A stretch of 32,463 nucleotides of DNA from Escherichia coli (GCF_003334385.1 NZ_QOWN01000051.1), one strand, 5' to 3'; numbered from the stretch's first letter, positions 8,475 to 21,295 are shown. Numbers and translations: made by a program. Notes: a model not told the origin generated them from the letters alone.

Positions 8475-10508
8475 TCACGCGTCCGGGAACATCACGCTAT
8501 GGCCCGGCGCTTCACGATGGAGATGAATAAAGTTAAGGTGCCGCTCGTACTGGTCAAGAATATCGGTGATCACCTGCTCTTTGCTGTAGTCCATCAGGTC
8601 GTTGCCCTGGCTGCCTTCTAACAGGAAGGTTTCCAGCCGGTAGTAGGTCGATTTACCGCTGCGTGCGCGGTAGGTAAAGCCCGGCACCGAATATTGCTGC
8701 GGCCAAATCTGATAGACAAAGTTTTGCTCTTCGCCCATATGCACCAACAAATCCAGATGACCCAACTGCTGTCCCTCTTCCGGTGGCAGGCTTTTTAGCT
8801 CCACGTACGCGCCGCGCAACCGCAACTCCTGCGCCACTTCTTCCATTGCCGGGTAACAGACCGTCTCCATCATCTGTTTAGTGTAACGCGTGCCCGGATA
8901 ATTCATCAGGCGCGAGAGACGTTTTTTCCAGCTCAGGCGATCCTGAAGCCCCAGCGGTCGCGGTGCGGTATCGCGGTTGGCACTTTCACGGCGGTAATCT
9001 TCTACCTTCAGAGATTTATACAACCCCGCCATCACGAAGAAGATCACAAAGCTGAACGGCAGCCCCATAATCACCGTGGTGTTTTGCAGCGCGGATATCC
9101 CGTTAGTCATCAGCATGCCGAGCGTCAGCAGGCCAATCGCCACCGACCAGAAGACGCGCAGCCAGCCGGGGGCGTCGCTGTTGATATCTTTAAGCTGCGA
9201 GGTGAAATTCCCCAGCACCAGCGCCCCGGAGTCCGCCGAGGTCACATAAAACAGCAGGCCAGTAATGGTGGCGACGGAGGCGCTAAAGGTAAACGCCGGA
9301 TACTGCGCCAGCAGGCTGTAGAAGCCGCGCTCCGGATGGACCATCGCTTCCTCGGCAAATGCCGCGCCGCCGTGGATGATTTCATACAGCGCGCTATTGC
9401 CGAACACCGAGAGCCATAACAGCGTGAAGGTAAACGGAATAATCAACGTGCCCAGCACGAACTGGCGAATGGTACGCCCACGCGAGATACGCGCCAGGAA
9501 CAAGCCGACAAACGGCGACCATGCCACCCACCATGCCCAGAAGAAGAGCGTCCAGTTATTCATCCACTCAACCGGACGGTCGAAGGCAAAACTGTTGAGC
9601 GTCATGCCCATAAAGCGATTCACATAGTCGCCAACATTCAGCACCAGTGCATTAAGCAGGAACGAAGTGTCGCCCATAAACAATACGAACAGGATCAATC
9701 CCAGCGCCAGCGCGACATTAAGCTCCGATAACACGCGAATGCCCTTATCGACACCGGAGGTGACAGAGATCGTGGCGATTATCACCGACAAGGCGATCAG
9801 TGCCGCTTTCGCCGCCATCGAATCGGGAATATCAAACAGTACGCTCAAGCCATAGTTAAGCTGCACCACACCGATACCGAGCGTAGTGGCAATACCGAAG
9901 ATAGTGCCGATCACCGCTGCAATATCCACTGAGTGACCTATCGGCCCGTTAATCCGTTTACCGAAGATCGGGTACAGCGCCGAGCGGATGGTGAGCGGCA
10001 AATTATAACGATAGCTAAAGTATCCGAGCGCCATGCCCATCAGCGCATACATCGACCAGCCGGTTAAGCCGTAGTGAAACAGCGTCCAGACCATCGCCTG
10101 ACGCGCGGCCTCAATCGTCTGTCCCGCGCCTTCCGGCGGCTGCATATACTGCGTTACCGGTTCGGCTACGGAGAAGAACATCAGGTCGATACCGATCCCG
10201 GCAGCAAACAGCATCGCCGCCCAACTCAGCAGGCTGAATTCCGGTTTGGATTGTTCTGGCCCGAGCTTCACCGAACCAAAACGCGAACAAGCGATACAGA
10301 CCACAAAGACAATATAGAGCGTTGCCGCCAGCAGATAGTACCAACCGAAGGTTTTAGAAACCCAGTCCAGCGTGCGGCCAATCCACAGGGCCGAGAAGTC
10401 GCGAAACAGGATCGTTGTCAGGGAAAACAACAAAATCAGTCCGGCGGAGGTGTAAAACACCACCGGATTGATTTTGTCCTTTTCCCTGCTGTGTGAAAGG
10501 TCTGTCAT
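8475..10508 (-). CDS. betT: High-affinity choline transporter, BCCT family (677 aa)
   Basis: 677-aa polytopic ORF with BCCT-like sequence (WTLFFWAWWVAWSPFVGLFLARISRGRTIRQF); divergent from betI. Confidence 0.95.
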   Translation of the reverse strand: MTDLSHSREKDKINPVVFYTSAGLILLFSLTTILFRDFSALWIGRTLDWVSKTFGWYYLLAATLYIVFVVCIACSRFGSVKLGPEQSKPEFSLLSWAAMLFAAGIGIDLMFFSVAEPVTQYMQPPEGAGQTIEAARQAMVWTLFHYGLTGWSMYALMGMALGYFSYRYNLPLTIRSALYPIFGKRINGPIGHSVDIAAVIGTIFGIATTLGIGVVQLNYGLSVLFDIPDSMAAKAALIALSVIIATISVTSGVDKGIRVLSELNVALALGLILFVLFMGDTSFLLNALVLNVGDYVNRFMGMTLNSFAFDRPVEWMNNWTLFFWAWWVAWSPFVGLFLARISRGRTIRQFVLGTLIIPFTFTLLWLSVFGNSALYEIIHGGAAFAEEAMVHPERGFYSLLAQYPAFTFSASVATITGLLFYVTSADSGALVLGNFTSQLKDINSDAPGWLRVFWSVAIGLLTLGMLMTNGISALQNTTVIMGLPFSFVIFFVMAGLYKSLKVEDYRRESANRDTAPRPLGLQDRLSWKKRLSRLMNYPGTRYTKQMMETVCYPAMEEVAQELRLRGAYVELKSLPPEEGQQLGHLDLLVHMGEEQNFVYQIWPQQYSVPGFTYRARSGKSTYYRLETFLLEGSQGNDLMDYSKEQVITDILDQYERHLNFIHLHREAPGHSVMFPDA

Positions 10509-14606: not shown

Positions 14607-15275
14607 ATGCGTGAACAAATCAAACAGGATATCGATCTGATTGAGATTTTATTTTATCTGAAGAAAAAGATTCGTGTTATCCTTTTTATTATGGCTATAT
14701 GTATGGCTATGGTGCTGTTGTTTCTGTATATCAATAAAGACAATATAAAAGTGATTTACAGCCTAAAAATAAACCAGACAACGCCAGGTATACTTGTTAG
14801 CTGTGATAGCAATAATAATTTTGCCTGTCAGACTACAATGACTGAAGATGTTATTCAGCGAATTACTACATTTTTTCACACCAGCCCAGATGTCAAGAAC
14901 AGAGAAATAAGGCTGGAATGGTCAGGAGATAAGAGAGCTTTACCAACTGCTGAAGAGGAAATATCTCGCGTGCAGGCCTCTATTATCAAATGGTATGCGT
15001 CAGAATATCATAATGGCAGGCAAGTTCTCGATGAGATACAAACGCCTTCAGCAATTAACAGTGAGCTTTATACAAAAATGATATACCTGACCAGGAACTG
15101 GTCATTGTATCCGAACGGTGATGGCTGTGTAACTATAAGCTCACCAGAAATAAAAAATAAATACCCTGCTGCCATTTGCCTGGCTCTGGGATTTTTTCTA
15201 AGCATTGTAATTTCTGTAATGTTTTGCCTTGTCAAAAAAATGGTAGATGAATACCAACAAAACTCTGGGCAGTAA
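14607..15275 (+). CDS. ykgH: Bitopic inner-membrane protein (222 aa), function unknown
   Basis: Hydrophobic segments near both N-terminus (VILFIMAICMAMVLLFLYI) and C-terminus (AAICLALGFFLSIVISVMFCLV) flanking a hydrophilic domain of about 140 aa; markedly AT-rich coding sequence. Confidence 0.8.
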   Translation: MREQIKQDIDLIEILFYLKKKIRVILFIMAICMAMVLLFLYINKDNIKVIYSLKINQTTPGILVSCDSNNNFACQTTMTEDVIQRITTFFHTSPDVKNREIRLEWSGDKRALPTAEEEISRVQASIIKWYASEYHNGRQVLDEIQTPSAINSELYTKMIYLTRNWSLYPNGDGCVTISSPEIKNKYPAAICLALGFFLSIVISVMFCLVKKMVDEYQQNSGQ

Positions 15276-15517
15276 TAAACAACATTCTGATAGAGAGTGC
15301 CTGTATAAAGCTGAAGTGACAATGACCGGGAAGGGAACCCGTTTTCAGGAATGGATGCCTGTCTTTTTCACTGTAAATATCCTGGCATTGGTAATACCAG
15401 GATATTTACAGAAGAGCAGCATAACCATGACGGAACGGGGTTAAGTCAGGTTGTCCTAAACGCTATTTTCAACCTCGTATGCCTTCTTCAGGTTTATGTC
15501 CAGACTTCATATCTCTC

Positions 15518-16213
15518 TCAACAATCCTCAATAATCAGATACACCGCTTTCACCGGGCCATGAACTCCGACGACTTTGATAAGCTCAATATCCGCCGTTG
15601 AACTGGGGCCGCTAATGATGTTAATGCAGGAAGGCATTCGTTCACCGGCCTGCGCTTTCTGATGCAATTTTTCTGCGAGTTGCGCTACACGCGGCAGGAT
15701 AGTGCTTTTACGCAGGATAAAAAGAGAATATTCCGGGAGCAGGCTCAATGAACGCCCGCGCTCGGCGGCGGAAAAAAGAACCACACCTCCCGATTCGGTT
15801 AAACCATATTCAGCATACACAACACCCACTTTAGCCTGCTCTGCCTGCGAGATATTCTCGGCACCTTTCGCCGGATCCCAAACAACGGCATTGCATTCCT
15901 GCTGCAAACGTTCGCTAATCCCCAATTCCTCCAGCCTCGTGTCACCGCTAATCACGACCGACTGATCTCCCAGCTCTTTACACAGACGTATTGCAGCTTC
16001 TGCCGCCTTCGCCTCGCTGGTCAGCTCACAGCGCGTCAACATAACATCGCTGGCAAACTGAATAAACGCGTCACAGCGCTGCTGTTGGTTAAGTTGGGTA
16101 AGCCGCTCGTTAGCATAGTTGTTAAGCGGCGCATCTTCTGCTTGCGGTTCAAGTCGCAGCGGGCGACCCAGTGCCTGAGCAACGTTATTCAAAAATTCGC
16201 CTCGATTATCCAT
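15518..16213 (-). CDS. ykgG: LutC-like subunit of a LutABC-type three-gene oxidase system (231 aa)
   Basis: Start chosen at MDNRGEFLNNVAQALGRPL (231 aa), which overlaps the ykgF stop by 8 nt; the track ORF extends 51 codons further upstream into ykgF. Confidence 0.85.
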   Translation of the reverse strand: MDNRGEFLNNVAQALGRPLRLEPQAEDAPLNNYANERLTQLNQQQRCDAFIQFASDVMLTRCELTSEAKAAEAAIRLCKELGDQSVVISGDTRLEELGISERLQQECNAVVWDPAKGAENISQAEQAKVGVVYAEYGLTESGGVVLFSAAERGRSLSLLPEYSLFILRKSTILPRVAQLAEKLHQKAQAGERMPSCINIISGPSSTADIELIKVVGVHGPVKAVYLIIEDC

Positions 16214-17633
16214 TCTTTTTCTCCTGCGCCTGATGTTTCTTAAACCAACTACGGAAACTCTCTCCGTCAGCTTCAGGAAGATCGCGTGCTTCCATCCAGT
16301 CGCTAATCGCGCCAAATTTGAGTGGTGTTTTGCCGCCATTGATAAACCAGCTTGCCGCATGAGCACCGGCCATCATCCCGACTTTCCACAATCCTGGATG
16401 ACTATTGGCATAAGCGAACATTTTTATCGCCCGTTGCTCTGCTTTTGCGGTGATCCCTTTTTCAGCCATCACCCGACGATGACGCAAAATCAGTTTTGAC
16501 AGCGGAATACGCACCGGACACACGTTGTCACAAGCTGTGCATAAAGAGCAGGCGTAGGGTAAATCTTTAAAATCTTTATAGCCGCCAAGTAGCGGAGAAA
16601 TCACCGCACCAATTGGCCCTGGATAAATAGAGCCATATCCATGACCGCCAATATGGCGATATGCCGGACAAGTATTCATACAAGCCCCGCAGCGAATACA
16701 GCGCAGCACATCCCGAAATTCAGAGGCCAGCACCTCAGAACGCCCGTTATCGACAATAACCAGATGAAACTCTTCAGGACCATCAACGTGCCCAGCTTCG
16801 CGCGGTCCTGTCAGCCAGGTGTTGTATCCCGTCAAACGTGCACCAACGGCACTGCGCGCCAGCATGGTGATCAATACATCTACCTCGGCAAACGTGGGGG
16901 CAATACGCTCCATTCCCATCACTGCAATATGCGTTTTAGGCAGCGTGGTACACATTCGCGCATTACCTTCATTGGTCACCAGGCATACCGAACCGGTCTC
17001 TGCCACCGCGAAATTACAGCCGGTAATACCTATTTCAGCACTGAGGAAATCTTCGCGGATTTTTTGCCGGATGAATAAGGTCATCGCTTCAGGCGTTTCC
17101 GGCCCCTCATAGCCCAGACGTTCGTGTAGCACTCGACGGATCTGATGGCGATCTTTATGAATTGCCGGGACCACAACATGAGATGGCGGATCTTGATCCA
17201 GCTGGAGAATATATTCACCCAGATCGGTTTCAATCACCTGAATGCCAGCATCCTGCAACACATGATTGACACCAATCTCTTCGGTCACCATCGATTTAGA
17301 TTTCACCACCTTCCGGGCATTTTTGCGTTGGGCAACCTGTAAAATGTAGCGGGTAGCGTCTTCTTTGGTTCTTGCAAAATAGACGTGACCGCCGTTTTGC
17401 GTCACTTTTTCTGAGAGCTGGTACAGATAAGCGTCGAGATTACTCAGAACATGATCACGTATCTGGGCGGCCCGATCGCGCCACTCCTCCCAGTGCCCCA
17501 ATTCATCGACCATTTTTTGCCGATTTGCCCCAATACGCTGCTGCGCGTTTGCCACCGCTTTGCGCATGATCGGATCTTCAATTTGCTGACGGATGCGTGT
17601 CTTAAAATCTGTATTACTGGTTTTGATCGACAT
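16206..17633 (-). CDS. ykgF: LutB-like iron-sulfur protein with two 4Fe-4S ferredoxin-type cysteine clusters (475 aa)
   Basis: CxxCxxCxxxCP motifs visible (CIRCGACMNTCPAY and CSLCTACDNVCPV). Confidence 0.9.
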   Translation of the reverse strand: MSIKTSNTDFKTRIRQQIEDPIMRKAVANAQQRIGANRQKMVDELGHWEEWRDRAAQIRDHVLSNLDAYLYQLSEKVTQNGGHVYFARTKEDATRYILQVAQRKNARKVVKSKSMVTEEIGVNHVLQDAGIQVIETDLGEYILQLDQDPPSHVVVPAIHKDRHQIRRVLHERLGYEGPETPEAMTLFIRQKIREDFLSAEIGITGCNFAVAETGSVCLVTNEGNARMCTTLPKTHIAVMGMERIAPTFAEVDVLITMLARSAVGARLTGYNTWLTGPREAGHVDGPEEFHLVIVDNGRSEVLASEFRDVLRCIRCGACMNTCPAYRHIGGHGYGSIYPGPIGAVISPLLGGYKDFKDLPYACSLCTACDNVCPVRIPLSKLILRHRRVMAEKGITAKAEQRAIKMFAYANSHPGLWKVGMMAGAHAASWFINGGKTPLKFGAISDWMEARDLPEADGESFRSWFKKHQAQEKKNG

Positions 17634-17643
17634 CTTTATATCC

Positions 17644-18363
17644 TCAGCGGCTCATCAACACTTCAGCAATATGCATCACTTTGACTTTCTGCCCTTCCCG
17701 TTGTAATCGCCCACTGATGTTTAGCAGGCAACTCACGTCAGCACCAATTAAATACTCAGGGCGGACTTCCATCAGGTGCGCAACCTTTTCTTTCACCATC
17801 TCGCCGGATATTTCGGCCATTTTGACCGAGAACGTGCCGCCAAATCCGCAGCAGGTATCCTGTTCAGCAAAGGTCAACAGCTCCAGTCCACGCACATTTT
17901 TCAGCAGCGTAAGTGGCTCGTCCTTCACTCCCAGCTTACGGGCCAGGCTACAAGATGGGTGATACACCGCTCTCCCTTGCAAACTGGCACCTACATCGAC
18001 TACCCCTAATTTATTAACAATAAAAGAGGTGAGATCCTGCATACGCGCGGCAACCTTTGCGGCACGTGATGCCCATTCAGGTTCATCCGCCAGATACGTC
18101 GGGTAACTTTTTACGGCATAGGTGCAAGAGCCAGCCGGTGAAATAATGGGATCGTCGTTATCCTCCAGTGCGGCGATCAGATTTTTCATCCCTGGAATCG
18201 CTTCTTTGATATAACCGCTATTGATCGCAGGCTGACCGCAGCATCCCTGTTTCTCCGGGAAATTTACGCGACAGCCGAGTTTTTCCAGTAGCAGCACGGA
18301 GTCTCGTGCCATTCTTGATTTCAGGGCGTCACCAATACAGGTGACAAAGAAATTGACATTCAC
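17644..18363 (-). CDS. ykgE: LutA-like cysteine-rich (CCG-domain) Fe-S oxidoreductase subunit (239 aa)
   Basis: Cys-rich motifs (CCGQP, CSL, CCGFGG) typical of CCG domains; 10 nt upstream of ykgF. Confidence 0.9.
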   Translation of the reverse strand: MNVNFFVTCIGDALKSRMARDSVLLLEKLGCRVNFPEKQGCCGQPAINSGYIKEAIPGMKNLIAALEDNDDPIISPAGSCTYAVKSYPTYLADEPEWASRAAKVAARMQDLTSFIVNKLGVVDVGASLQGRAVYHPSCSLARKLGVKDEPLTLLKNVRGLELLTFAEQDTCCGFGGTFSVKMAEISGEMVKEKVAHLMEVRPEYLIGADVSCLLNISGRLQREGQKVKVMHIAEVLMSR

Positions 18364-18889
18364 AACTAATACTCCATTACTTCATGCCCATTTATGCCCG
18401 ATGTTTCCCCCCCACCGGGGGATCAATCATCAATAAATATGGCGTTCTTTTTTAATTGGCTAGCAACATACCCCCCCTCATTTGTATGACAAATGATAAT
18501 CTTTCATCCAAACGTCAAATGCAATAACTAATTTTATTTCTTTCGGCATCGCTCACATTTTATGGGGAAATCGACGATCATTTTTGGCATAAGAAATCCA
18601 TTTAAAAATGGCTACATCCCTTATACCTATTCAGAGCTACTTATTCAGGGGTTATTGAGATATACACTGATGGTGTACAAAAAAATCACCGACAATAATC
18701 ACGTATCAAGTAATAGTCGGGATTTTATTTAATTGAAGCAATTTAGTTTGCATTTTTATTTAAAAACTGAGCTAGAGTCCATCAGAAAAAATATATAAAG
18801 CCCAAACCACCGTTGGAAATAGAAATAGTTGAAAGGCTCACAACTCCCGGAATGCGGATTATCTTTGCCCTGATTTCTGGCGGTTTTAT

Positions 18890-19744
18890 TCAGGGTGCAA
18901 GCTGTCTGACCCTTTCCCGATATTCTCCCGGGGTACAACCAAACTCGCGGACAAACGCCTTGTGAAAAGATGATTCACTGGCATAGCCTACTGACTCAGC
19001 GATCACCACAACAGGGAGCGTTTCCCGGGAAAACATCTGGGCCGCTATTTGTAGACGCAACTTTGTTAATACAGCCAGCGGCGTGGTTCCGGAAACATCA
19101 CGGAAAAGCTGGGCAAAACTTGCCCGGGACATGTGAGCGATGCTGGCCAGCGATTCGACGGTCCAGGCGTGTCCTGGCATTTCCAGCATTTGCTGTATTA
19201 CCGCACCAAGACGTGGATGCAGAAGCAAACTGAGAATGTTTTTCTCAGTATTAACCTGTGCAATCCACTCACGCACCGCGAGGGTAAAGAATGTAGCGCA
19301 GATCTGGCTACACAGTGCATCCACTCCCGGCATTGCCGATCTGGATTCCTGTTGTAAAAACGGGATCGCCTCCCTCAGCCAGTTATATTCCACGCTGTGG
19401 TTAACCGGTGCTAAAAACAGCGTTTCCGGCAAAGACGTTAAAAAATAACGCGCCGAATGTTGCAACCGAAGAGTGCCGCAGACAATACAGGTCGATTCAT
19501 TATCGACATGACTCAGGCGATGAGCTGAATTTTGTGGTAGCAGGACCACATTTCCCGGGCGTAATGTAAAAATCTCCCCCGTCGGCATTTCCAGCTTCGC
19601 CGCTCCTTGCGTTAACGCATGCCAACGAATAACCGATAATTCCCCGGCACCATGTGGAAGCTGCCAGTCACTTCCTAACACGCAATTCTTATCGATCGTT
19701 CCTTGTGGAGCGTTAAGCATCAACAAACGGCTAAGGGCATCCAT
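18890..19744 (-). CDS. rclR: AraC-family redox-sensing activator of the reactive-chlorine-stress operon (284 aa)
   Basis: C-terminal AraC-type HTH; N-terminal cysteines at about positions 21 and 89, matching the redox-sensing Cys pair I recall for RclR; divergent from rclA. Confidence 0.9.
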   Translation of the reverse strand: MDALSRLLMLNAPQGTIDKNCVLGSDWQLPHGAGELSVIRWHALTQGAAKLEMPTGEIFTLRPGNVVLLPQNSAHRLSHVDNESTCIVCGTLRLQHSARYFLTSLPETLFLAPVNHSVEYNWLREAIPFLQQESRSAMPGVDALCSQICATFFTLAVREWIAQVNTEKNILSLLLHPRLGAVIQQMLEMPGHAWTVESLASIAHMSRASFAQLFRDVSGTTPLAVLTKLRLQIAAQMFSRETLPVVVIAESVGYASESSFHKAFVREFGCTPGEYRERVRQLAP

Positions 19745-19969
19745 ATCAGACTCCTGAGTGGTTTTTGATTACAAACACCAACAATCTTAGTAAATAACTA
19801 ATCTAATACCATCAAATAGTTAATCATGATTTTTGTTTTGTGATTCTGATTAAGAAAAAGAAAATATCAGACGATAAGACAAAATATCAAGCGTTGTGAA
19901 GAAATGTTATTTGCTCTTTTGCGTCTATAGTCATGATGTCAAATGAACGCGTTTCGACAGGAAATCATC

Positions 19970-21295
19970 ATGAATAAATATCAGGCAGTGATTATTGGTT
20001 TTGGCAAGGCTGGAAAAACATTAGCCGTCACGCTGGCAAAAGCAGGTTGGCGAGTGGCTCTCATCGAACAATCAAATGCAATGTATGGCGGGACCTGTAT
20101 TAATATCGGCTGCATCCCAACCAAAACATTGGTTCATGACGCACAGCAGCACACAGATTTTGTCCGTGCCATACAGCGTAAAAATGAAGTGGTTAATTTT
20201 TTACGTAATAAGAATTTTCATAATCTTGCGGATATGCCCAATATCGACGTGATCGACGGCCAGGCGGAGTTTATCAATAATCATAGCCTGCGTGTTCATC
20301 GGCCTGAGGGAAATCTGGAAATTCATGGCGAGAAAATTTTTATTAATACCGGTGCACAAACCGTGGTTCCGCCAATTCCTGGAATTACCACCACGCCAGG
20401 AGTATATGACAGCACCGGATTACTTAATCTAAAAGAATTGCCTGGGCATTTAGGTATTTTGGGCGGCGGATATATTGGCGTTGAGTTCGCCTCTATGTTC
20501 GCTAATTTTGGCAGCAAGGTAACCATTTTAGAAGCAGCTTCGCTGTTTTTGCCTCGGGAAGATCGGGATATTGCTGATAATATCGCGACGATTTTACGCG
20601 ATCAGGGCGTCGATATTATCCTCAATGCCCATGTGGAGCGAATCAGTCACCATGAAAATCAAGTGCAAGTGCATAGCGAGCACGCCCAACTGGCGGTGGA
20701 TGCACTGTTAATAGCTTCCGGTCGTCAACCGGCTACCGCTTCGTTACATCCAGAAAATGCCGGTATCGCAGTAAACGAGCGCGGGGCAATTGTCGTTGAC
20801 AAGCGATTACATACCACCGCAGACAATATTTGGGCGATGGGAGATGTTACCGGCGGGCTGCAATTTACTTACATATCACTGGATGATTACCGCATTGTAC
20901 GTGATGAGTTACTGGGTGAAGGCAAACGTAGTACTGATGATCGGAAAAATGTGCCTTATTCCGTATTTATGACACCGCCCCTGTCCAGGGTTGGTATGAC
21001 AGAAGAACAAGCCAGAGAGAGTGGTGCTGATATTCAGGTGGTGACATTGCCTGTAGCTGCAATTCCGCGTGCCAGAGTGATGAATGATACTCGTGGGGTA
21101 TTAAAAGCGATTGTTGATAATAAAACCCAACGTATGTTAGGGGCATCACTGCTGTGTGTTGACTCCCACGAGATGATCAATATAGTGAAAATGGTGATGG
21201 ATGCCGGGCTGCCTTATAGCATATTACGCGATCAGATATTTACTCATCCGTCGATGAGCGAATCACTCAATGATCTATTTTCATTAGTCAAATAA
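19970..21295 (+). CDS. rclA: Pyridine nucleotide-disulfide oxidoreductase family flavoprotein (441 aa)
   Basis: N-terminal FAD dinucleotide-binding motif (VIIGFGKAGK) and redox-active CxxxxC (GGTCINIGCIP). Start chosen at MNKYQAVIIGFG with an upstream GGA-rich RBS. Confidence 0.9.
   Translation: MNKYQAVIIGFGKAGKTLAVTLAKAGWRVALIEQSNAMYGGTCINIGCIPTKTLVHDAQQHTDFVRAIQRKNEVVNFLRNKNFHNLADMPNIDVIDGQAEFINNHSLRVHRPEGNLEIHGEKIFINTGAQTVVPPIPGITTTPGVYDSTGLLNLKELPGHLGILGGGYIGVEFASMFANFGSKVTILEAASLFLPREDRDIADNIATILRDQGVDIILNAHVERISHHENQVQVHSEHAQLAVDALLIASGRQPATASLHPENAGIAVNERGAIVVDKRLHTTADNIWAMGDVTGGLQFTYISLDDYRIVRDELLGEGKRSTDDRKNVPYSVFMTPPLSRVGMTEEQARESGADIQVVTLPVAAIPRARVMNDTRGVLKAIVDNKTQRMLGASLLCVDSHEMINIVKMVMDAGLPYSILRDQIFTHPSMSESLNDLFSLVK

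Follow-up and report, generated by a model that had tools for sequence, protein, structure and literature searches.

The three genes considered here are the already known chromosomal ykgEFG operon of Escherichia coli K-12, which is for an iron-sulfur enzyme that oxidises L-lactate. We analysed the operon within a stretch of 32,463 nucleotides of E. coli DNA (GCF_003334385.1 NZ_QOWN01000051.1), hereafter the window, which has 99.9% identity to E. coli K-12, and RefSeq annotation was taken from the matching stretch of strain MG1655. The explanation that we favour, with a probability of about 0.78, is that ykgEFG is an L-lactate oxidoreductase operon repressed by YieP and activated anaerobically, and that the spacer upstream of it is otherwise what remains of lctP, a lactate permease gene. 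The operon already has a name, in the best-studied of bacteria, and its phenotype and promoter dissection have been published; in the form given by an earlier note on this DNA it offers little that is new. The new element is that the spacer holds two collinear relics of a divergent lctP, truncated at rclR.

Operon structure and family assignment

The earlier note had described three tightly linked genes of LutABC type, for a CCG-domain protein, a double 4Fe-4S ferredoxin protein and a LutC-like protein. Open reading frames and the MG1655 annotation confirm that all three are real and lie on the minus strand at the places given there (Table 1); the note was right about the gene identities, about a LutABC-type architecture and about a tight operon, and domain scans bear out each protein description. 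The reported spacing also agrees with our measurements: 10 nt (17634-17643) separate ykgE from ykgF, and ykgF and ykgG overlap by 8 nt (16206-16213, ATGGATAA), which suggests that their translation may be coupled. The Shine-Dalgarno sequence of ykgE is kept in other Escherichia species. An extension of the ykgG reading frame to a GTG at 16366, which appeared in the ORF listing, differs from the annotated start and was not adopted.

Table 1 Features of the ykgEFG locus. Positions are counted from the first nucleotide of the window.
Feature	Position	Strand	Description
Inverted repeat, 19-bp	15371-15411		Spacer between the convergent ykgH and ykgG, 107 nt beyond the ykgG stop; 95% complementary, 3-nt loop
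ykgG	15518-16213	minus	231 aa, ATG start (MDNRGE); LutC/LldG-type subunit
ykgF	16206-17633	minus	475 aa, starts 10 nt past the ykgE stop; LutB/LldF-type subunit
ykgE	17644-18363	minus	239 aa, GTG start; LutA/LldE-type subunit; RefSeq name ykgE
Shine-Dalgarno GGAG	18372-18375	minus	8 nt before the ykgE GTG; read directly from the sequence
Hairpin CCCCC-GGT-GGGGG (CCCCC-ACC-GGGGG on the given strand)	18409-18421	minus	Putative 5' UTR; no function assigned
YieP operator ATTTGTCATACAAAT	18480-18494	minus	ChIP-exo motif and Reg-Seq energy matrix
-10 GATTAT	18496-18501	minus	Reg-Seq RNA-polymerase footprint p72-78, persisting in the yieP deletion
-35 TTGCAT	18519-18524	minus	Reg-Seq footprint p48-55; 17-nt spacer to -10
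Activator site, reported as FNR	18539-18561	minus	Reg-Seq site -102 to -80
Relic, lctP promoter/5' region	18723-18774	plus	81-90% identity to the sequence 44-82 bp before the lctP start in Citrobacter and Tenebrionibacter
Relic, lctP coding sequence	18827-18899	plus	Codons about 341-365; tblastn and blastn
rclR	18890-19744	minus	Flanks the operon upstream
rclA	from about 19943-19970	plus	Flanks the operon upstream

Pfam scans found two CCG cysteine-rich domains in YkgE, a LUD, a Fer4_8 and a LutB_C domain in YkgF, together with two CxxCxxCxxxCP motifs, and a single LUD domain in YkgG. Three adjacent, co-oriented genes thus carry the set that defines the LutABC/LldEFG family (CCG twice; LUD with two [4Fe-4S] motifs and LutB_C; LUD). 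YkgF scored 778.7 bits against the NCBIfam equivalog TIGR00273 (LutB/LldF), whose cut-off is 444.8. No NCBIfam model exceeded its cut-off with YkgE, the best being the C-terminal half of a fused LdhH model (183.8 bits versus 800), and none matched YkgG, which RefSeq names 'LutC/YkgG family protein'; YkgF and YkgE taken jointly give an end-to-end alignment with the fused 'L-lactate dehydrogenase (quinone) large subunit LdhH' model. None of the nine cysteines of YkgE varies among 71 orthologues, the most distant at 64% identity; the eight ferredoxin cysteines and C206 of YkgF are likewise invariant in 72 orthologues, and C196 and 24 other residues of YkgG are invariant in its orthologues. A sequence search of the PDB returned only HdrB and HdrC, and no LutABC structure; HdrB subunits are the nearest solved relatives of YkgE.

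At the downstream end, nothing fitted the terminator pattern after either rclR or ykgG. The repeat at 15371-15411, which has no T-run on either strand, may mark the end of the transcript.

Promoter and regulators of ykgE

The ykgE promoter has been dissected by Reg-Seq and ChIP-exo, which showed repression by YieP and activation under anaerobic conditions by a factor called FNR (PMC7567609, PMC7642389). We placed the published footprints on the window by converting Reg-Seq position p to coordinate 18574 - p, the Reg-Seq zero point being a computational prediction. YieP was identified at this promoter by mass spectrometry, the operator footprint is lost in a yieP deletion, and the ykgE operator is described as the strongest possible YieP binder (PMC7567609); deletion of yieP derepresses ykgEFG about tenfold, and ChIP-exo yielded a YieP motif (PMC7642389). 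The site in the window matches that motif, atTTGTaTGAcaAAT, exactly and equals positions 80-94 of the Reg-Seq energy matrix. The inverted-repeat search (I3) found it as the palindrome TCATTTGT/ACAAATGA at 18478-18496, with arms at 18478-18485 and 18489-18496, and its core TTTGTCATACAAAT (18480-18493) does not vary among three Escherichia and 12 Citrobacter loci; Citrobacter has T at the outer base, 18494. The operator starts one base (18495) downstream of the -10 element and covers the probable transcription start, which the footprints place at about 18487-18490, ~125 nt upstream of the GTG. Both by its motif match and by a placement able to block RNA polymerase, this is a YieP-repressed promoter.

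The promoter elements are themselves strongly conserved: TTGCAT of the -35 is invariant in 16 sequences, and ATTAT of the -10 is invariant across Escherichia and Citrobacter. A candidate from a consensus scan, TTGTCA-16-TATGTT (18492-18465), was rejected; its -10 and G-run spacer are unconserved even within Escherichia, and the Reg-Seq polymerase footprints fall upstream of it.

The activator footprint appears only under anaerobic conditions and peaks at -98 to -94, which corresponds to TGTGA (PMC7567609). The core of the site reads TGTGA (18553-18557)-N6-CCGAA and is centred ~61 bp upstream of the probable start, and the block AAAATGTGAGC...CCGAAAGAAATAAA shows little or no variation in Escherichia and Citrobacter. 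Phylogenetic footprinting between the two genera left exactly four invariant blocks, namely the activator site, the -35, the -10 and the operator. The FNR consensus TTGAT-N4-ATCAA, which a class I FNR-activated promoter should resemble at its activator site, has, with up to three mismatches allowed, no match between 18395 and 18666; with three mismatches, the search gave 188 matches against 155 expected, and zero at the footprinted site. TGTGA resembles a CRP-type half-site more than an FNR one, so the identity of the activator is not secure. The promoter is reported to behave as an anaerobically activated one, with an FNR assignment that comes from Reg-Seq and that the sequence did not confirm. 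The suggestion in the earlier note of non-trivial regulation is accordingly right as to a YieP repressor and an anaerobic activator; these were already known, however, and lie at 18478-18562, not at the palindrome that the note had singled out, and the better palindrome in the spacer, the YieP operator, had been overlooked.

Remains of a lactate permease gene in the spacer

Upstream of ykgE, a spacer of 526 nt with 36% G+C (18364-18889) extends to rclR. Within it, the relic of the lctP 5' region and the other conserved segments are collinear. For the relic of the coding sequence, tblastn of Citrobacter LctP against the window gave 19 of 25 identical residues (E = 3e-6) and blastn gave 81% identity over 69 nt (E = 4e-14), the query protein being an LctP-family permease by TIGR00795; on the opposite strand, the final three codons of rclR and its stop overlap this relic. 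Truncation of the relics at rclR makes the adjacency of ykgEFG to the chlorine regulon a rearrangement scar, from which no functional tie to the reactive-chlorine genes should be deduced. The length of the spacer and its position beside the rcl genes, both previously taken to hint at regulation, are explained by a decayed lctP and by rearrangement. The window holds only relics and no intact lactate permease linked to the operon, such linkage being supportive and not strictly defining.

Two other readings of the region were set aside. The K-12 leader (18386-18477) has no similarity to the dld-containing modules of E. coli or Citrobacter, as a remnant of a deleted dld should. E. coli chromosomes with an intact lctP beside ykgEFG carry a different, IS-flanked module, about 83% identical, and not the native arrangement.

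Among relatives, an LctP-family gene adjoins ykgE in 41 of 72 species loci, and two Citrobacter loci have dld between ykgE and the same promoter. The lctP-dld-ykgEFG module is matched by 206 plasmids, including 141 whose match covers 80% or more of it. Neighbours of ykgEFG in other Enterobacterales are lctP, dld, yohJK and cfa. The latter two lie by the operon in Samsonia and Dickeya, where the genes run yohJK - araC-type regulator - cfa - ykgEFG, in Kosakonia and Phytobacter, where they run araC - cfa - ykgEFG, and in Serratia. In Pectobacterium, cfa is about 3 kb upstream of lctP-ykgEFG, and the starts of the intervening ORFs suggest a riboflavin-synthase-like and a MATE-pump-like product.

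It is conceivable, if rather doubtful, that the YieP regulon of E. coli is an ancestral cluster that has become dispersed, with YkgEFG taking part in a coordinated response to lactate or small hydroxyacids and YieP sensing lactate, pyruvate or a related acid. If so, YohJK would provide transport, standing in for the lost LctP, while YkgEFG would provide oxidation and Cfa membrane protection. The conserved operator before lactate modules in several families makes lactate or pyruvate candidate signals for YieP.

Substrate and physiology

In E. coli MP1, deletion of ykgEFG causes a fitness defect during anaerobic growth on L-lactate plus nitrate and none on D-lactate, and the authors concluded that YkgEFG is a respiratory L-lactate dehydrogenase (PMC9701030). 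This genetic evidence suggests that the enzyme oxidises L-lactate to pyruvate and feeds the respiratory chain. The description of the substrate as unsettled, given in the earlier note, no longer stands as worded. To our knowledge, no LutABC-type enzyme has been purified far enough to define its catalytic cofactor and acceptor, work for which E. coli would serve well as a host.

We consider it unlikely that YkgEFG is instead a broad 2-hydroxyacid (or other small-acid) oxidoreductase within a YieP-controlled organic-acid response, with L-lactate as one of several substrates. A passage of PMC13279387 that cites Malfoy 2024 does group YkgEFG with LldD and Dld as membrane-associated lactate oxidoreductases oxidising 2,4-dihydroxybutyrate, and the operon is co-repressed with yohJK, which confers tolerance to 3-hydroxypropionate (3-HP; PMC7642389); the proximity of yohJK and cfa in the genera listed above and the loss of the dedicated permease in E. 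coli could be read in the same way. The sole growth phenotype is stereospecific for L-lactate, however (PMC9701030), a lactate permease lies beside most orthologues, and a ykgEFG deletion lacks the change in 3-HP tolerance seen in a yohJK deletion (PMC7642389). The adjacency of cfa may moreover be inherited gene order, as the arrangement in Pectobacterium illustrates.

It is less probable still that ykgEFG persists in E. coli as a mostly silent remnant of evolution, with the transporter lost, expression repressed and LldD making it redundant. The reduction of lctP to two short relics would fit such a history, as would the roughly tenfold repression in laboratory conditions (PMC7642389), the lack of a fitness effect of the deletion in the mouse gut in two colitis models (PMC9701030), an earlier study cited by a later paper as having found no ykgEFG phenotype in K-12, and the ykgF frameshifts picked up in a laboratory evolution experiment. 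Yet 5105 of 5426 complete E. coli genomes (94%) have the operon intact, every conserved cysteine is kept, across genera the promoter elements, the activator site and the operator stay invariant or nearly so, and the defect on L-lactate plus nitrate is measurable (PMC9701030).

A G/C hairpin in the leader

The leader contains a hairpin with an all-G/C stem of 5 bp and a 3-nt loop, formed from a C7 run and a G5 run (G7 on the mRNA strand). Such a hairpin occurs in 0.35% of mononucleotide shuffles of the spacer and is thus unlikely to be due to chance. It had been described as a palindrome at 18408-18420 and taken as a hint of regulation; the feature is present, although one base away (Table 1) and not a true palindrome. 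Among E. coli strains the hairpin varies, with a variant in ST131 that breaks the stem and with no compensatory changes; in other Escherichia it is shorter, with a C-run/G-run version at the same place in three lineages, and the Citrobacter alignment has no counterpart, the region not being alignable. The fold of the leader is no more stable than that of shuffles (z = +0.48), and Rfam searches at gathering and permissive thresholds gave no match in the leader, only a chance mir-338 elsewhere and two naRNA4 at 1-160. No T-run follows the stem, no minus-strand terminator was called in the spacer, and the left arm of the hairpin, when mutagenised, gave no signal in the Reg-Seq footprint.

With no U-run, no curated RNA family and a stem that varies, the hairpin does not qualify as an intrinsic terminator, attenuator or riboswitch, and its variability within E. 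coli, its absence from Citrobacter, its silence in Reg-Seq and its unexceptional stability leave the regulatory role that had been suggested unsupported. Although a stem of this kind is rare in an A+T-rich spacer, recurs at the same place in three other Escherichia lineages and could in principle lose its C-run to a second G7 run (18471-18477), that G-run too varies among E. coli strains and the loop varies as well as the stem length, and we therefore see next to no likelihood that the hairpin is an RNA control element of ykgEFG such as an attenuator, pause site or ligand-sensing leader. As part of the explanation that we favour, it is probably a homopolymer-run feature with no detectable role.

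Proposed mechanism

We propose that YkgEFG works as an L-lactate:quinone-type oxidoreductase of the LutABC/LldEFG family, built of three subunits, with iron-sulfur clusters and independent of flavin. On family knowledge (HdrBC, GlpC, type-E succinate dehydrogenase), the LUD domains of YkgF and YkgG would presumably handle the substrate, and the two [4Fe-4S] clusters of YkgF would hand electrons on to YkgE, whose CCG-domain clusters would deliver them, by a path and to a quinone acceptor that we infer, to the membrane quinone pool. The three genes would be co-transcribed and translationally coupled, driven by a sigma-70 promoter (TTGCAT-17 nt-GATTAT). YieP, a repressor of the GntR/FadR type, binds the palindrome over the start site and represses the operon about tenfold, and the anaerobic activator reported as FNR, bound ~61 bp upstream, turns the operon on without oxygen; anaerobic activation fits the one known phenotype, the use of L-lactate in nitrate respiration. 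The rest of the spacer would be the remnant of a divergent lctP, the companion of the operon in many relatives, and would hold no regulatory machinery. About 1 kb of lctP would have been deleted and the remainder cut off at rclR.

Comparison with known systems

HdrBC and GlpC, a subunit of anaerobic glycerol-3-phosphate dehydrogenase, are the nearest solved or curated relatives of the YkgE CCG domains and the YkgF ferredoxin module, and this kinship supports an iron-sulfur electron relay. The matches lie far below the family cut-offs and therefore indicate kinship at the level of fold only; HdrBC and GlpC work with a thiol/disulfide site or a flavoprotein partner, whereas the substrate part of YkgEFG would be its LUD domains.

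LutABC of Bacillus subtilis and LldEFG of Shewanella oneidensis (also of Campylobacter and Helicobacter) share gene order and domain set with ykgEFG, and the likeness extends to the LutB/LldF equivalog that YkgF passes, to an L-lactate-specific genetic phenotype and to frequent linkage with a permease. The chromosomal copy in E. coli differs in having no permease and in being regulated by the unlinked YieP, where the other systems have an adjacent gene of the LutR/LldR type. It also matters only in anaerobic nitrate respiration, since LldD covers aerobic growth (PMC9701030).

The lctP-dld-ykgEFG modules of Citrobacter and of Klebsiella and E. coli plasmids (e.g., of the pFec10 type) contain orthologous enzyme genes, with YkgE 93-95% identical in Citrobacter, and have the same activator site, promoter and YieP-type operator as the window, with collinear segment order. 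In these modules the divergent lctP is intact, and in some of them the operon begins with dld; the window, in contrast, has relics of 73 and 52 bp, and no dld.

In E. coli, ykgEFG and yohJK answer to YieP directly, and cfa does so through the YieP-repressed small RNA RydC. Compared with the YieP regulon (yohJK, sdaC, rydC and adiY), the ykgE operator is a perfect match to the regulon motif.

Identity and substrate of the ykgEFG enzyme

The ykgEFG locus is already known, as is its regulation by YieP from published work; the earlier note's observation of the operon was confirmed, while its interpretation is partly supported yet superseded by that work. Its view of the substrate as unsettled has been overtaken by a published L-lactate phenotype of a ykgEFG deletion: in E. 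coli MP1 the deletion caused a competitive defect anaerobically with L-lactate and nitrate and none with D-lactate, from which its authors concluded that ykgEFG encodes a respiratory L-lactate dehydrogenase. In two mouse colitis models the mutant showed no defect (PMC9701030). A later paper counts three membrane-associated lactate oxidoreductases in MG1655, lldD, dld and ykgEFG, and cites work in which the products of all three oxidised 2,4-dihydroxybutyrate (PMC13279387). Comparative genomics also argues for lactate as the substrate, given that ykgE has an LctP-family (lactate permease) gene immediately beside it in 41 of 72 species loci.

The window is E. coli DNA. Its positions 15400-19000 are 99.9% identical to MG1655 (K-12), and of 5426 complete E. 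coli genomes 5105 contain at least 80% of this stretch. RefSeq annotates ykgG, ykgF, ykgE and rclR here, with ykgH and betA at one flank and rclABC at the other. The minus-strand open reading frames bear out the reported spacing of three genes with a 10-nt gap and an 8-nt overlap. Pfam domains comprise two CCG domains in YkgE, the set LUD, Fer4_8 and LutB_C in YkgF, and a single LUD domain in YkgG. YkgF passed the NCBI LutB/LldF equivalog model (778.7 bits, cut-off 444.8), and YkgF and YkgE together tile, end to end, the model for the fused "L-lactate dehydrogenase (quinone) large subunit LdhH", which provides independent support that both subunits work as one Fe-S unit. In alignments of 71-72 orthologues, one per species, all nine Cys of YkgE were invariant (9/9), as were the eight ferredoxin Cys and C206 of YkgF. 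No solved LutABC structure was found by sequence, the closest chains being heterodisulfide reductase subunits B and C.

Elsewhere in the window, the spacer where ykgH and ykgG converge holds an inverted repeat, which may serve as a bidirectional transcript end or as a protein site; it lacks a T-run after it on both strands. The ykgH protein matched no NCBIfam model, and the first of two naRNA4 matches is cut by the window edge.

Features of the window and of the loci of other genomes compared with it (L-numbers); p, position in the Reg-Seq sequence of the ykgE promoter
Feature	Position	Strand	Details
naRNA4 (nucleoid-associated noncoding RNA 4, CssrE)	1-160	+	two tandem Rfam matches, above gathering score
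ykgH	14607-15275	+	222 aa; N- and C-terminal segments hydrophobic
Inverted repeat	15371-15411		19 bp, 95% complementary, 3-nt loop
ykgG	15518-16213	-	ORF, 231 aa
ykgF	16206-17633	-	ORF, 475 aa
ykgE	17644-18363	-	ORF, GTG start, 239 aa
Shared promoter, third collinear piece	18478-18564		common to Citrobacter arrangement
-10 GATTAT	18496-18501		polymerase footprint p72-78; 17 nt from TTGCAT
-35 TTGCAT	18519-18524		polymerase footprint p48-55
lctP upstream relic	18723-18774	+	matches DNA just 5' of Citrobacter lctP start
lctP coding relic	18827-18899	+	LctP codons 341-365: 19/25 residues, E = 3e-6; DNA 81% identity, E = 4e-14
YieP-type operators	L012 2842; L016 5858; L029 5814; L033 5819 and 4152; L036 5819; L039 188; L042 and L067 4144
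yohJK/araC/cfa-type neighbourhoods	L022 2481-8855; L073 2436-8849; L017 3515-8849; L072 3874-6540; L021 and seven other Kosakonia/Phytobacter loci

The ykgE promoter and the YieP operator

Deletion of yieP raises ykgEFG expression about tenfold, and ChIP-exo yielded the motif atTTGTaTGAcaAAT (PMC7642389). The ykgE promoter has been dissected by Reg-Seq, in which mass spectrometry and a knockout identified YieP, and a further regulator, an activator acting anaerobically, was assigned to FNR (PMC7567609). Positions 80-94 of the Reg-Seq YieP energy matrix read ATTTGTCATACAAAT, whose single occurrence in the window (18480-18494) fixes the conversion, window = 18574 - p. The YieP footprint (p81-93) is lost in the yieP deletion; both polymerase footprints remain. 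From the mapped footprints we infer a transcription start near 18487-18490, inside the YieP operator, the start being an inferred one because the Reg-Seq zero point is a computational prediction. The anaerobic-only footprint, once converted, peaks on TGTGA (18553-18557); the centre of this activator site would thus lie ~61 bp upstream of the start, a class I position, and the leader would be ~125 nt long. The site has no match to the FNR consensus within three mismatches and resembles a CRP-type half-site, so that the FNR identity rests on the Reg-Seq growth-condition evidence.

Alignment of the upstream region with three other Escherichia lineages and twelve Citrobacter species revealed exactly four invariant blocks: AAAATGTGAGC...CCGAAAGAAATAAA, TTGCAT, (G)ATTAT and TTTGTCATACAAAT. 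Downstream of the YieP operator, Escherichia and Citrobacter are wholly unalignable. A TTGTCA/TATGTT promoter from a consensus scan was rejected, as it is not conserved. In the cattle strain E. coli 148 (L076) the -10 is GACTAT rather than GATTAT (aligned to 18499) and a base beside the operator is altered; expression from the ykgE promoter may be lower in this strain. Promoter differences in BL21(DE3) have also been noted (PMC7642389).

The spacer, the hairpin and the reactive-chlorine genes

The long spacer and the rcl neighbourhood had been taken as a hint of regulation, and both have another explanation. The window keeps three collinear pieces of the Citrobacter lctP-promoter-ykgE arrangement, and ~1 kb of lctP is absent between the two relics; the spacer is therefore for the most part a dead permease gene. 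The coding relic overlaps the end of rclR (last three codons and stop), and neither relic, both lying between rclR and the ykgE promoter, is annotated in RefSeq. Only in E. coli does ykgEFG lie beside the reactive-chlorine genes, other Escherichia species having an aldo-keto reductase where rclR would be, and this adjacency is uninformative on function.

The "palindrome" described in this spacer is present at 18409-18421, one base from the position first reported, and is a C-run facing a G-run rather than a true palindrome. Given the base composition, such a hairpin would seldom arise by chance (0.35% of shuffles have one). Four E. coli strains carry CCCCCGGTGGGGGGG, CCCCCGGAAGGGGGG, CCCCCGGAAGGAGGG and CCCCGGGTGGGGGG, which differ in run length and loop with no compensatory change, and a G7 run upstream varies among strains too. 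The hairpin is shorter in other Escherichia and absent from Citrobacter; it has no T-run after it and no Rfam match, the stability of the folded leader does not exceed that of shuffles (z = +0.48), and the left arm gave no signal when mutagenised in Reg-Seq. Proposed as a regulatory hint, it is assigned no function.

lctP modules and gene neighbourhoods in relatives

In Citrobacter, a divergent gene of 517-524 aa upstream of ykgE passed the LctP-family model, and at two loci dld lies between the conserved promoter and ykgE. The lctP-dld-ykgEFG module had matches in 206 plasmids, mostly of Klebsiella and E. coli, with at least 80% of the module in 141. Some E. coli chromosomes carry it, IS-flanked, as a second type, and an intact lctP ~85% identical to the Citrobacter gene is found on about 90. 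On the single chromosome examined, from an ETEC strain (NZ_LR883000.1; L077, 9001-15608), the module is IS1/IS5-flanked, ~83% identical to the native operon and a horizontally acquired second type.

A search of 879 kb of loci, allowing at most two mismatches to ATTTGTCATACAAAT, recovered 25 YieP-type operators, 24 of them in front of ykgE or lctP. The loci bearing them belong to distant Enterobacterales (Tenebrionibacter, Pluralibacter, Leminorella, Pragia, Proteus and the metagenome-assembled Enterobacteriaceae genome L036) and to Photobacterium. In Budviciaceae the operator and the end of lctP overlap, suggesting that ykgE has an internal promoter there.

Where lctP is missing, other neighbours recur directly upstream of ykgEFG: yohJK, an araC-type regulator, cfa and ykgEFG in that order in Samsonia and Dickeya oryzae; yohJK, araC and ykgEFG in Dickeya undicola and Serratia; and araC, cfa and ykgEFG at eight Kosakonia/Phytobacter loci. 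Although scattered in E. coli, yohJK and cfa both fall within the YieP regulon there: YieP acts directly on yohJK, its other tenfold target (PMC7642389), and on cfa via RydC, a small RNA that it represses. Together, these neighbourhoods and the YieP control of yohJK and cfa suggest that these genes and ykgEFG may form a functional module. Shared ancestry of gene order would be sufficient to explain the same proximity, and cfa also lies near lctP-ykgEFG in Pectobacterium. Nearly all Vibrionaceae and Moritella loci (Photobacterium, Vibrio and Moritella; L042-L071, about 8900-10100) have a LysR-type regulator just 3' of ykgG, its best match being YafC-like and below cut-off. This association differs from the regulator association in Enterobacterales.
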